From the NCBI GenBank assembly GCA_016432325.1, contig CP066684.1, positions 64,001 through 128,000 of the forward strand: DNA of 64,000 nt, read 5' to 3'. The stretch comes from Candidatus Aenigmatarchaeota archaeon. GTDB lineage: Archaea > Aenigmatarchaeota > Aenigmatarchaeia > PWEA01 > JACQIF01. Each line of letters starts with the position of its first letter. Position 1 is the first letter of the stretch. The notes below the pieces were generated by a model that searched no databases, had not been told where the DNA came from, and worked only from the letters and a program-made list of their open reading frames with translations. A program made the position numbers and the translations under genes. Positions 5,912 through 63,372 of the stretch are shown here, piece by piece.

Positions 5912-6478
5912 ATGCAGGAGACAAAGATGGAAAATGCGATGCGCGACATTCGAACGCGTAGCGTTCGAAGCGCTTCGAACCCGATGTTCGAAGGAGTGCG
6001 CGTGGAAAAGGTGACGCTCAATATAGGAGTCGGAGAAGGAGGAGACAAGCTCCAGAAGGGAGCGACTCTCCTGAACGCTCTCGCCGGCCAGACCGTTTAC
6101 ATGGCCAAGGCGCTGAAGCGAACGACCTTCGGCACGCCGCGGGGCAGGCCCATAGGCGCGAAGGTCACTCTCCGCGGAGCGAAGGCCGAGGAGTTCATAA
6201 AGCTCGCGTTGCGTTCAAAGGACAACAAGATCCCGGAGAAGGCGTTCGACAGCACGGGCAACCTCTCGTTCGGGGTCGCGGAGCACATAGACCTGCCGGG
6301 CGTGCGTTACGATCCCAAGATAGGAGTATTCGGCATGGACGTCTGCATCACGCTGGGAAGGCCCGGATACAGGGTGAAGAAGAAGGCCCGTCCGACGCGC
6401 GTGGGAAAGACGCACCTGTTGACGCGCGAGGACGCGATGGAGTTCATGCGCAAGAAGTTCGGGGCTGAACTCGTATGA
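5912..6478 (+). CDS. rpl5: 50S ribosomal protein uL5 (alternative start 5927) carrying an in-frame palindromic insert
   Basis: [32 protein letters not shown]. Confidence 0.96.
5949..5992. repeat. in-frame double hairpin insert in rpl5
   Basis: two TTCGAAC-n-GTTCGAA hairpins. Confidence 0.8.
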
Positions 6479-12984: not shown

Positions 12985-13943
12985 TGAACAAGGATTGGCT
13001 CGTTCGTTCGGAAGAGATATCAGACATGCGCTTCGGCTGCTATCCCGGCGCGCGTACTGTCGAAAATCACATAAAAAACGGAATCGTCGTCATAGACAAG
13101 CCCCCGGGTCCGACTTCCCATCAGGTTACGGCTTGGGTCCGCGACATGCTTGGTTTGAAAAGGGCGGGCCACGCAGGCACGCTTGACCCCAAGGTTACGG
13201 GCGTGCTGGTGACGGCTCTGGAGAACGCGACGAAGATAATGCCCGCCTTGATGGGCGCGCAGAAGGAATACGTCGCCGTCATGAAAGTTCACCGCGACGT
13301 GACGGACGCGGAGCTCGCGGACGTCGTTAAAAAGTTTCTCGGCAAGATAAGGCAGACGCCGCCGCGAAAGTCCGCGGTCAAACGCGTCGAACGCACACGC
13401 GAAGTGCAAGAACTGGAAATTCTGGAGCGCGACGGCAACGACGTGCTGATGCGCGTTTCGTGCGAGGCCGGAACGTACATCCGCAAGCTCATATCGGACA
13501 TGGGTGTGCTTATCGGCGGTGCGCACATGGCCGAGCTGCGTCGCGTGCGCTCCGGATTCTTCGGCGAAAGCGCGCTCGTGCGCATGCAGGACCTCAAGGA
13601 CGCGTACGACGTCTGGAAGGAGACAGGCAACGAGGACGAAATCCGCAAGCTCGTCATGCCTGTGGAAGAGGGCGTTGAGCACCTGAAGCACGTGATCGTC
13701 AAAGACACGGCCATCGACGCTTTGTGCAACGGCGCGCCGCTTTCGAGCGGCGGCGTGCTGAGGCTTGAAAAAGACGTTCGCGCAGGCGATCTTGTCGCGC
13801 TGCTTTCCGCCAAAGGCGAGCTCGTCGCGATAGGCAAGGCCGCCGCCGGCGCGGAAGCAATCCACAAGGAGCGCGTGATGGCCGTGCGCACAGACCGCGT
13901 GGTCATGGCCCGCGGCGTCTATCCGAGGACGTGGAAGGTTTGA
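12981..13943 (+). CDS. cbf5: H/ACA pseudouridine synthase Cbf5 with PUA domain
   Basis: DKPPGPTSHQV, GHAGTLDPKVTG, EAGTYIRKL. Confidence 0.96.
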   Translation: MMNKDWLVRSEEISDMRFGCYPGARTVENHIKNGIVVIDKPPGPTSHQVTAWVRDMLGLKRAGHAGTLDPKVTGVLVTALENATKIMPALMGAQKEYVAVMKVHRDVTDAELADVVKKFLGKIRQTPPRKSAVKRVERTREVQELEILERDGNDVLMRVSCEAGTYIRKLISDMGVLIGGAHMAELRRVRSGFFGESALVRMQDLKDAYDVWKETGNEDEIRKLVMPVEEGVEHLKHVIVKDTAIDALCNGAPLSSGGVLRLEKDVRAGDLVALLSAKGELVAIGKAAAGAEAIHKERVMAVRTDRVVMARGVYPRTWKV

Positions 13944-38883: not shown

Positions 38884-39657
38884 TTACTTCTTGCCTTTCT
38901 TCTCGGTCTTGACGCCTTCCACGATGCGCGCCAGTTCGCGCACGTTGTCCGTCAGCGCCGGCAGGAAGTCCTTGAACGCGCGTTCCACAGAACTGACGCG
39001 TCCTTCCAACGACTGCAAAGATTCGCTGGTTTCGGTCAACAGCGTCTTCATCTCCGCCTTCTCCGTGTCTTGATTATCCATCATCTCGTTGAGCTTCCCT
39101 TCCAGAGAGTCCATCCTCTCCATCGATGCGCCGTAGAGGCGGTCCAGTTCCGCGAGATGCGCTTCGACGTCTTTCCACTTCTCGTTGATTACCTCTTCGA
39201 TAAGCTCTTCGAGAGCGACCTCCTCGTGCGCTGTCATTTCGACAACGCCTGCGCCTGACGGAAGCTCCTCGAGCTCTCTGGGATACTGTTCCTGAGGCAT
39301 CTGTATGCCGAAATCGTCAGGAGGCGTCTGCGCCTGCGGCGCGGGCGGTGGCAGAGGCCCTTGCGGAGGAGCAGGCATCCTCTGCATCTGTAGAGGAGGA
39401 CCCTGAACGCGCGGCATTGGAGGAGGGGAAGGCATGCGCAGTGCTTGCTGAGGCGGCGCCACGGGTTGCTGAATAGCGGGCTGCGGCGCAACGTCGCCGC
39501 CGACGGTGAACTTCAAGACGCGGTTTAGCGCCTTCGCAACCTGTTCGTTGGAAAATCCTTGTGACCGTAAGGTCGTTATTATCTCGCGCTCGCTGCGGCC
39601 TTCAGACGCGAGTCTCTGGACCTCTTCGACCGGCACACGCTCTTCCTGCTGTTCCAT
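38884..39657 (-). CDS. coiled-coil protein with Pro/Gln linker, probable pilus accessory
   Basis: 257-aa ORF adjacent to the pilus locus; EELIEEVINEKW. Confidence 0.75.
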   Translation of the reverse strand: MEQQEERVPVEEVQRLASEGRSEREIITTLRSQGFSNEQVAKALNRVLKFTVGGDVAPQPAIQQPVAPPQQALRMPSPPPMPRVQGPPLQMQRMPAPPQGPLPPPAPQAQTPPDDFGIQMPQEQYPRELEELPSGAGVVEMTAHEEVALEELIEEVINEKWKDVEAHLAELDRLYGASMERMDSLEGKLNEMMDNQDTEKAEMKTLLTETSESLQSLEGRVSSVERAFKDFLPALTDNVRELARIVEGVKTEKKGKK

Positions 39658-39783
39658 TTACTGGTCCCTCCTCGCCTTTCCGAGTGTACGAGACTGCGGT
39701 CTCGACATGTTCGGCCGAGGGCCGAACTTTTCGAACCGCTGTTCGAAAATGTCGAAACTTTGTTTCGTACACGGTAAATCCAT
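39658..39783 (-). repeat. multibranch gene-start element
   Basis: TAAATGGA duplicated; four nested hairpins; 41-aa uORF ends in TAA abutting the ATG. Confidence 0.85.
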
Positions 39784-39787
39784 TTAA

Positions 39788-40186
39788 TCACTTTTTCGGT
39801 TTGGGACGGTCGGCCAACTCTTCCCTTACAATCGCTTTTACCTCTGTTTGCGTCGCATAGTGGGTGCGCAGGGGGCTGAGCAGGTCTATGTAGCTCTTGA
39901 ATTCCTCGAGATCCGAGCGAAGCGAGACCTTGTTCAAGAACTTCTTCGTGTTGGATACCTCTGTTTCCAGTTTCAAAATCTTGGTATTTAAATCTTCCAG
40001 AGCCTGCTCGAGCGCGCCGGCGCGCGTGCGCATCTCCTCGGTTCGCTTGAGGGAGGTGGTCTCGACGCTCATCTGTTTGGCTTCCATGCTGCGCGCAATC
40101 TCCTCGAGGTTGCGTATGCGGCGCATAGCCTCCTGCAGGACGCGGACGACTTCCCCAAAAGCCTCTTCGGCCGTGCGGGCGGCCAT
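39788..40186 (-). CDS. coiled-coil protein, probable pilus accessory
   Basis: 132-aa heptad-rich ORF; strong SD. Confidence 0.75.
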   Translation of the reverse strand: MAARTAEEAFGEVVRVLQEAMRRIRNLEEIARSMEAKQMSVETTSLKRTEEMRTRAGALEQALEDLNTKILKLETEVSNTKKFLNKVSLRSDLEEFKSYIDLLSPLRTHYATQTEVKAIVREELADRPKPKK

Positions 40187-62170: not shown

Positions 62171-63178
62171 TTAGTCGTGCACGAGAGGCGCAATCTTGCG
62201 CGGTTCAAAGCCGTTGCCGTTGGTGGTGTCCTTGTGTCTAATTTCCACCCACCCCGCGACGCGCTCGGCAATAGCATCTGGAGTGAAGCCGGCCTTGCGG
62301 TACAGGTCTTTCGGCGAGCCGGTCTCCCCCTTCTCGGCCCCTATTCTGCGCATGTGGGTCGGATACCTCTCCGAAAGCACGTCAGATACACTGCTCCCCA
62401 GCCCGCCGTCTATGCTGTGGTCTTCTGCTGTTACGACAAGACCGGTCTTCCTTGCATACTGTTCGATAAGCAAAGAGTCTATCGGTTTTATGGACGAGAT
62501 GTTTATCACCGCCGCACTCACGCCAGATCCCTCCAGCAGTGCTGCGGCTCCCAGCGACGGTTCTATCAGCGCCCCATAGCTCATTATCGCTACGTCGTCG
62601 CCGTCGCGAAGCACCTCGCCCTTTCCTATAGACCATTCCCAGTTGTCGTCGTGCAACGTCAATACTTCTGCGCGGGTCATGCTCATCGTCGCGGGTCCCG
62701 CGTATTTCGGGTCTTTTACGTTTGCGAGTTTGACTGTCATCTGTTTCGCTTCAACCCAGTCCGCCGGGCATAACACGGTGTCCGAGATCGCCTTGTTGTA
62801 TGATAGATAGTTGAGAACCTGGTTGCTCACGCCGTCTTGTCCGACCTGCAAGCCGACATGGCTGCCTACCTTGCAGACGTTGAGCTTCGCGCGCCTGACT
62901 ATCTGTTCGAACGGTTCGGCGGCGAGTTTGGAGAATCCCTCGAAGGTGGCGTAATAGACGCGTTCGCCTGTACGATGCGCCGCACCAGCCGCCATTGTGA
63001 CGCTGTCCTGTTCCGCTATGCCCGCATCAACGATGCGCCGCGGGTACTGTGCAGCGAAGTCCGCGAGGGACATGGAATTGCCAAGGTCCGATACGTAAAC
63101 GCGGATATTGTGCGTCTTGGCCGCTTCCACAGCGCCCCGACCGAGGCCGCTTCTCATCGATTCGTGCTGGCCCTTCAT
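62171..63178 (-). CDS. transketolase C-terminal (pyrimidine-binding/C) subunit
   Basis: GIAEQ, GQDGVSNQ, SIKPID, AEDHSIDGGLG. Confidence 0.93.
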   Translation of the reverse strand: MKGQHESMRSGLGRGAVEAAKTHNIRVYVSDLGNSMSLADFAAQYPRRIVDAGIAEQDSVTMAAGAAHRTGERVYYATFEGFSKLAAEPFEQIVRRAKLNVCKVGSHVGLQVGQDGVSNQVLNYLSYNKAISDTVLCPADWVEAKQMTVKLANVKDPKYAGPATMSMTRAEVLTLHDDNWEWSIGKGEVLRDGDDVAIMSYGALIEPSLGAAALLEGSGVSAAVINISSIKPIDSLLIEQYARKTGLVVTAEDHSIDGGLGSSVSDVLSERYPTHMRRIGAEKGETGSPKDLYRKAGFTPDAIAERVAGWVEIRHKDTTNGNGFEPRKIAPLVHD

Positions 63179-63372
63179 GCGCGACTCCCTCCTTCTCCGC
63201 GCTGCACGGGAACCGCAGTCCCCGGCATTTTCGAACAGCGGTTCGAAACTTTACGAATAGCTATTCGTAAACTTGCGACCGCGTCGCAAGAGTTCGACCG
63301 AAGGCCGAACATGTCGGGAAGCTCCACTTCCCGTACAGGGAAGGATGAAACCGCGTGTTTCGTGCCCTTCAT
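63179..63372 (-). repeat. 194-bp multibranch element between the transketolase subunit genes
   Basis: ATGAAGGGC 9-bp direct repeat; seven hairpins; shares modules with the 39658 element. Confidence 0.9.

Follow-up and report, generated by a model that had tools for sequence, protein, structure and literature searches.

Selfish DNA is expected to be almost absent from the very small genomes of symbionts. The closest described systems are found in proteobacteria, where REP hairpins form the inverted pairs known as REPINs or BIMEs (PMC3116915, PMC3337134) and carry a conserved GTAG or CGTC tag at the hairpin foot (PMC3733652); in Rickettsia, whose palindromic elements measure about 100-150 bp and belong to a single sequence family, according to the summary in PMC10969869; in organelles, with the yeast mitochondrial GC42 element (PMC4478555) and the double-hairpin elements of Allomyces (Paquin et al. 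2000, as cited in PMC4478555); and among archaeal miniature elements derived from IS200/IS605, which depend on TnpA/TnpB.

Here we analysed a stretch of 64,000 nucleotides (the window) from an Aenigmatarchaeota genome that consists of one contig of 874,869 bp with 56% G+C, is estimated to be 90% complete and codes for archaeal type IV pilins and a split transketolase. An 89-base element in the window, which the initial annotation had read as a conserved branched scaffold, is most probably a stack of nested miniature palindromic DNA cassette insertions and not a purpose-built RNA. A literature search found no description of such hairpin cassettes in DPANN archaea, and the family is apparently undescribed so far. 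The load carried by the host genome is unexpected, with about 60 hairpin clusters that reach into a universal ribosomal protein, pilin leaders, operon junctions and a tRNA gene.

Results

A hairpin stack between two minus-strand genes

The element occupies positions 39684-39772 (+) of the window and consists of 89 bases comprising outer words, two side hairpins, the words CGACAT...ATGTCG and two inner hairpins; the sequence there reads exactly as the initial annotation of 39658-39783 gives it. It is flanked by two coiled-coil ORFs (39788-40186 and 38884-39657), both on the minus strand, and lies within a short upstream ORF (uORF) that starts 4 nt past the stop codon of ORF 39788-40186 and whose terminal TAA directly abuts the ATG of ORF 38884-39657. 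The features of the locus are the following:

39658 to 39783, minus strand: uORF of 126 nt (41 codons plus stop), the frame of a 39-nt junction cassette carrying an 87-nt insert
39685 to 39771: hairpin stack of 87 nt (29 codons), a layer-1 twin hairpin with a layer-2 twin inside; the 'scaffold' of the initial annotation
39685 to 39707: left side hairpin, foot TGT(A)CG...CGACA, stem AGAC/GTCT
39708 to 39749: inner twin-hairpin cassette of 42 nt, exactly between both side hairpins
39750 to 39771: right side hairpin, foot TGTCG...CG(T)ACA, stem AAAC/GTTT
39667 to 39671, minus strand: GGAGG ribosome-binding site of the downstream gene, within a junction cassette common to other genes

The 42-nt inner twin is composed of T, the GTTCGGCC hairpin, T, the TTTCGAAC hairpin and A. 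When 39684-39772 was folded as RNA, the predicted energy was -48.5 kcal/mol on the plus strand and -46.6 kcal/mol on the minus strand, with z-scores against shuffled sequences of -5.6 and -5.8, respectively, and none of 200 shuffles equalled either strand. Searches of the window with Rfam 15 gave no match at the gathering score and none in a permissive search either; the sole match under E = 10 was CRISPR-DR19, at 15.8 bits against a threshold of 40 bits. A 23-nt core word was present twice in the window, at 39729-39751 (+) and 63226-63248 (-), where no occurrence was expected, and the genome contained two further near-copies with 1 and 3 mismatches.

Base pairing is kept within the side hairpins

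The sub-family to which the element belongs is defined by constant words in the order TGYACG, hairpin, CGRCATGYCG, hairpin, CGTRCA, with variable hairpins between them. Since the Y/R positions of the constant words vary among 37 parsed copies from four genomes, we used them to compare two models of pairing. In the self-closing model, in which TGY pairs with RCA within each hairpin, 72 of 74 cells were Watson-Crick, with one G·U and one mismatch. In contrast, the multibranch model, with an outer stem and a CGRCAT/ATGYCG stem, gave 56 Watson-Crick cells of 74, 9 G·U and 9 mismatches, and its pairing broke in every copy with unlike halves. The same result was obtained when the five filled copies, those with hairpins between CGRCA and TGYCG, were aligned. 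Both informative foot pairs of the self-closing model were paired in 5/5 copies with two double-sided changes each, the Y3-R pair at the foot of the left side hairpin being CG in three copies and UA in two, whereas the corresponding pairs of the multibranch model were unpaired or G·U in three to four of the five. In the copy between the two halves of the split transketolase (tkt) and in that at 441 kb, the multibranch fold cannot form cleanly. In the 37 parsed copies the inverted doublets were also asymmetric, the left unit having an extra A in its 5′ foot and the right unit, its mirror image, an extra T in its 3′ foot.

The compensatory changes sought in the hairpin stems were thus found, but the conserved multibranch scaffold with its pairing kept was not borne out. 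That the variable foot positions covary within the side hairpins, and not across the closing stems, indicates that the branched fold favoured by RNAfold for the window copy is incidental, a by-product of two similar hairpin feet that arises there because both halves happen to be of the T/A type.

The stack is built of nested layers

The 'branched scaffold' can be resolved, with good confidence, into three layers of tiny DNA hairpin inserts nested in one another between two genes. Layer 0 is a stop/uORF/start junction cassette of about 39 nt that is common to several unrelated genes; it contains a start just past the upstream stop, a 12-codon uORF (MNLPLR..RDQ), a GGAGG site and a TAAATG stop-start, and is found uninterrupted at 596 kb of the genome. 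Layer 1 is a twin hairpin of 45-56 nt, each half of which closes on its own foot, TGY(A)CG...CGRCA and the mirror of it. Layer 2, a twin hairpin of 42 nt, sits exactly at the junction of the two layer-1 hairpins. In empty scaffolds CGRCA is joined directly to TGYCG, and relaxed matching recovered 16 empty scaffolds versus 5-6 filled ones in the host genome. The inner inserts of six filled copies measured 42, 42, 42, 45, 84 and 87 nt. At 653 kb, an empty scaffold of 48 nt occupies a position in the junction cassette (TTTACCG^CTC) identical to that of the window copy, and its first stem is also the same. The host genome therefore contains a series that runs from the junction cassette alone, through a 48-nt scaffold added at the same position, to the window copy.

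Junction cassettes ending in GACCAGTAAATG were seen at 488120-488190, 392925-392995, 596610-596685, 421855-421975 and window 39658-39783, with unrelated genes downstream. They carry a short uORF ending in (R/G)DQ and behave like a portable ribosome-binding site plus start.

The second copy of the core word in the window belongs to a larger stack:

63203 to 63337: tkt copy, stack of 135 nt (45 codons), with the side hairpins and inner twin of the window copy in opposite orientation
63175 to 63372, minus strand: uORF through the tkt stack, 198 nt

This copy is located between the N and C halves of the split transketolase, on the minus strand. The ATG of its uORF overlaps the tktN stop (ATGA), the TGA overlaps the tktC start (ATGA), and the gene start ATGAAGGGC is duplicated, with one copy on either side of the stack. 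According to the initial annotation, the two loci share a core that is inverted between them, and both points were confirmed: the 23-nt word is found in each, and the core strands are opposite although both copies lie between minus-strand genes. It had also assigned two extra modules to the tkt copy. The additional sequence is present, but the alignment showed that the tkt copy equals the other copies plus one 42-nt twin between the two inner hairpins (layer 3). The closing stems proposed there each carry a non-Watson-Crick pair, in the outer as well as in the inner stem, that had been overlooked. As for the gain or loss of whole hairpin modules, the emptier forms in the host genome and the 42-nt block of tkt agree with it, and such gain or loss is real and quantised. 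The proposal that the core moves at the DNA level holds as far as DNA-level gain is concerned; the mobile unit, however, is not the core but the separate 42-56-nt twin-hairpin cassettes.

Cassettes differ from relatives as DNA insertions

The genes that flank the window copy are syntenic in 10 relatives of the order, in which they overlap (ATGA) or are 1-22 nt apart. In the host genome the same two genes are separated by 130 nt, and therefore the stack is a derived insert. When the 87-nt stack is removed from the window uORF, the remaining MDLPLGKARRDQ is similar to the way in which the relatives' proteins begin (MISVPGFGKKKEPA and the like), a likeness suggesting that the window stack was inserted into what used to be the 5′ end of the downstream gene. 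In about half of the relatives (loci L022-L026 and others), the orthologue of ORF 38884-39657 was matched in two separate pieces, which may reflect a low-complexity linker or inserts.

The nearest genome available for comparison was that of a congeneric organism (G001; 90 contigs), whose conserved genes share about 65-73% DNA identity with those of the host genome. Both flanks were matched in G001 for 23 of 66 host-genome cassettes, and at least 12 were absent at the matching site, presence/absence differences most of which cannot be polarised as gain versus loss at 65-73% identity. At one site a twin hairpin occupied the place of a resident hairpin's 5-nt loop, and G001 lacked the filled scaffold of 441 kb at the matching site. 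The gene of ribosomal protein uL5 (Pfam L5, L5_C; window 5912-6478) contains a twin-hairpin insert of 48 nt, or 16 codons, after codon 7 (about 5934-5993), which is missing in G001: the protein reads MQNAMREVRIEK there and MENAMRD, 16 residues and VRVEK in the host. Two scaffolds (424118-424213 and 703852-703902) are in frame in type IV pilin-like leader peptides, upstream of the KG cleavage motif. The first of them, a filled scaffold of 96 nt, is missing in G001, and its removal restores MSKG/VSPLIA (MKSVKG/ISPLIA in G001). At 618860-618966 (L170, L173), a resident hairpin in a 268-aa protein of unknown family has a twin-hairpin insert on each side, of 42 and 45 nt; both inserts are in frame and both are missing from G001. 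Simple inserts compared with empty G001 sites showed target duplications of 0-1 nt, none of them consistent. Hairpins are in excess in G001 too (283 versus 156 in shuffles), and at least one 48-nt cluster is private to it, being missing at the tightly flanked matching site of the host genome; a second, shorter cluster shows the same 48-nt difference to the host genome. All in all, cassettes are gained or lost as DNA.

Larger composite inserts were flanked by direct repeats of 8-17 nt (8, 9, 10 and 17) of the gene start or target:

window copy: TAAATGGA, includes the gene start
tkt: ATGAAGGGC, includes the gene start
759 kb: 10 nt
467 kb: 17 nt
158 kb: ATGGGAAC, single copy in G001

L047:16100-16270 of G001 has three tandem copies of the gene start TATGGTAAAC, with a small hairpin after each extra copy.

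Cassettes were also seen at tRNA genes. Those at 829953-830160 (L248) and 641100-641230 consist of three hairpins between direct repeats of a tRNA 3′ end (GGTCCACCA), and the first GGTCCACCA repeat of the 830-kb cassette is the real end of a tRNA gene with a 34-nt intron. At 851590-851870 (L246), a tRNA gene is split at the T-loop region by an insert of about 140 nt that contains scaffold 851740-851791. This interrupted gene escapes the Rfam tRNA model; the G001 tRNA (L057:2134-2244) has an uninterrupted T-loop region and only a 38-nt intron in the anticodon loop. ARAGORN reported no tRNA in the four loci checked, two of which were detected by the Rfam tRNA model.

Regarding closer relatives, a protein scan of genome contigs found none, and a metagenome scan gave one locus, 34% identical; two proteins that were 59-60% identical were also found.

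Inserts in translated DNA keep the reading frame

All eight scaffolds located in ORFs or uORFs had lengths that are multiples of three (48, 48, 51, 51, 87, 93, 96 and 135 nt), compared with 3 of 13 scaffolds elsewhere (Fisher test, p ~0.0008). Inserts anchored on both sides measured 48, 51, 87, 96, 42, 45, 48 and 48 nt, and those in frame relative to G001 were found in uL5, a pilin leader and two other proteins. In the uORF family (MNLP...RDQ, then stop), the same first and last residues surround inserts of 0 nt at 596 kb (12 codons), 48 nt at 653 kb, 51 nt at 421 kb and 87 nt in the window. The lengths in translated DNA, all multiples of three, argue that the mRNA retains the stacks and that they are translated. 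We infer a ribosome relay through the bridging uORF, in which ribosomes that end the upstream gene would restart on the uORF, read through the stack and melt its hairpins, and ribosomes that end the uORF would restart at the start of the downstream gene. In translated DNA only frame-keeping inserts would survive. The conserved uORF frame suggests that the junction cassette may serve the host and not merely be tolerated.

Multi-copy scaffolds were seen in a few genomes

The host genome contained 545 perfect hairpins of at least 7 bp versus 314 in the shuffled genome; 245 of the 545 fell in the 13.6% of the genome that is non-coding by our ORF calling, and 61 clusters had two or more adjacent hairpins. 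Exact matches to the scaffold pattern numbered 12 in the host genome, one in G001 and 6 in G045, which belongs to the same class. A further 58 relatives had none, and a reversed-pattern control gave zero in all genomes. When 185,579 species were searched, with one genome each, the matches listed (80 of 100 matching stretches) were multi-copy only in JBAQNA01 and DAIDAN01, both Aenigmatarchaeota assemblies; bacterial records among the listed matches had a single match each, consistent with chance. The scaffold is therefore multi-copy in only a few Aenigmatarchaeota genomes, among the matches listed. Two scans of IMG/VR viral contigs for the scaffold returned two chance matches only, without hairpins.

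A second recurrent twin, with stems CTTACGAAC and TTTGCGAAC, was seen at 13806-13896, 273227-273270, 370026-370097, 448810-448853 and 607609-607709. It is accompanied by a palindrome with two TTTAAA words that may be TATA-box-like promoter elements.

Discussion

A dedicated cis-acting multibranch RNA in the operon mRNA, serving as a processing site, stabiliser or translational regulator with a conserved fold, would agree with the very stable fold predicted on either strand, the location of copies inside two probable operons, the compensatory changes in the hairpins and the CCTCC/GGAGG words that flank the stack in some copies and could pair. In imperfect intergenic hairpins, a test of G·U against A·C also placed G·U on the sense strand in 10 cases versus 3, a small excess from few informative hairpins that weakly hints at RNA-level tolerance. 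We consider such an RNA quite improbable nevertheless, as its closing stems show no covariation and are disrupted in the tkt and 441-kb copies, the same cassettes are found in divergent promoter spacers, coding sequence and a tRNA gene, the orthologous junction in 10 relatives is without cassettes, and Rfam has no match. The orientation relative to transcription is likewise arbitrary: the inner twin runs one way at 3 loci, the other way at 2 and both ways at 1, so that the tally proposed in the initial annotation revealed no strict strand bias. Hairpin clusters were distributed over divergent spacers (20), co-directional spacers (15), convergent spacers (5) and ORFs (21). Neither the orientation tally nor the context tally fits a strand-specific RNA function. 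If the stacks acted instead as arrays of operator-like, protein-binding palindromes in double-stranded DNA, the palindromic constant words (the 10-bp centre CGRCATGYCG and the TGYACG/CGTRCA ends) would be accounted for; but copies also lie within coding sequence, and the sequence between the constant words varies freely yet stays self-complementary, which matters for a hairpin and not for recognition of a duplex. This reading is barely plausible.

The stacks could also be RNA-level spacers, excised from transcripts like archaeal bulge-helix-bulge introns and harmless whatever their position in the DNA. Scaffold 851740-851791 points in this direction, because it is part of the insert of about 140 nt that interrupts a tRNA T-loop region and, the tRNA being uninterrupted in G001, must be removed from the RNA; animal cells, moreover, cut transposons out of mRNA via paired inverted repeats (PMC12779559). 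Yet no such motif (3-nt bulge, 4-bp helix, 3-nt bulge) was seen when the borders of the window copy were inspected by eye in the predicted folds, and excised stacks need no length in multiples of three, which every copy in translated DNA has. We therefore regard excision as very improbable. Movement as REPIN- or IS200/IS605-type elements, by a Y1 (HUH) transposase supplied in trans or since lost, would explain hairpin units with an asymmetric bulged foot, inverted doublets, insertion without target duplication and a position beside hairpins. In G045, the other lineage with the scaffold, a divergent Y1 protein gene lies 3 kb from a scaffold copy; as a mobilising enzyme it was rejected, since it has inverted ends of its own that are unrelated to the scaffold. 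No match to the Y1 transposase (PF01797) was found in the host genome, in G001 or in the 22 genomes searched of the order, the 12 genomes that have Y1 genes (present in 13 of 61 relatives) but not the scaffold also speak against it, and the GTAG or CGTC tag is missing. Such an origin is unlikely.

Searches of the host genome for TnpB (PF07282) and reverse transcriptase found none, and a search for viral Rep, which was run without a positive control, gave no match. A 395-aa integrase was rejected as the mobilising enzyme because its family is present in 27 of 61 relatives and the scaffold in 3, so that the two do not track each other. Resident hairpins are the targets of the cassettes, which enter at the foot or into the loop, in either orientation. 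They might be inserted by a copy-in guided by the structure of single-stranded DNA hairpins, with a logic like that of REPINs or IS200, by an enzyme that would not be recognisable in the host genome; alternatively, template switching during replication, at stalled forks, could generate them. Our best guess is one or the other of these two routes, because of the absence of target duplication, the hairpin foot and loop targets and the indifference to orientation. The 8-17-nt direct repeats of composite inserts are not explained by a simple copy-in model. The reading as a whole, that self-nesting miniature hairpin cassettes spread in DPANN archaea without a recognisable transposase by copying themselves to hairpin feet and loops, so that palindromes grow fractally while the host tolerates the bridging ORFs or uses them as ribosome carriers, is put forward tentatively, as possible rather than probable.

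If the cassettes move without a known transposase, a mechanism of hairpin-directed insertion that is not yet known would be implied. Frame-keeping together with bridging uORFs provides a testable rule for the tolerance of inserts in a gene-dense genome. For RNA motif hunting, the locus is a warning that a stable, seemingly 'covarying' branched fold can come purely from nested palindromic DNA.

By their defining features, the cassettes are neither REPIN/RAYT elements nor IS200/IS605 derivatives nor classical MITEs. Like the REPINs and BIMEs of proteobacteria (PMC3116915, PMC3337134), they are short inverted-paired hairpin units, present in tens of copies, mostly intergenic, in mosaic clusters whose stems are kept while the loops drift. 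Unlike REPINs, they have no RAYT/Y1 transposase, their foot is TGYACG / CGRCA without a GTAG or CGTC tag, each doublet is made of two hairpins of unlike sequence, the cassettes nest in one another and in coding sequence, and the host is a DPANN archaeon. With archaeal IS200/IS605-derived miniature elements (PATE-type, and the archaeal MITEs in the list of PMC10969869) they share hairpin ends and the absence of target duplication, but neither of the proteins on which those depend, TnpA or TnpB (PF01797, PF07282), was found in the host genome. The fixed-length target-site duplication of classical (DDE) MITEs is not seen either, with 0-1 nt for simple inserts and 8, 9, 10 and 17 nt for composite ones. 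The yeast mitochondrial GC42 and the Allomyces double-hairpin elements are similar in being double hairpins of about 40 nt that encode no enzyme, in presence/absence polymorphism, in substitutions concentrated in loops and in the merging and shuffling of hairpin modules (PMC4478555). They are organellar and not archaeal, however, and GC42 duplicates an AG target dinucleotide (PMC4478555), whereas simple inserts here show no consistent duplication. As in the Rickettsia palindromic elements (summarised in PMC10969869), palindromic sequences are inserted in frame into unrelated protein genes of a reduced genome and are translated; the units here are 42-56 nt long, modular and self-nesting, and also occupy stop/start junctions with a bridging uORF. 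The behaviour typical of those elements is nevertheless present, as the inserts within ORFs keep the reading frame in 8/8 cases.
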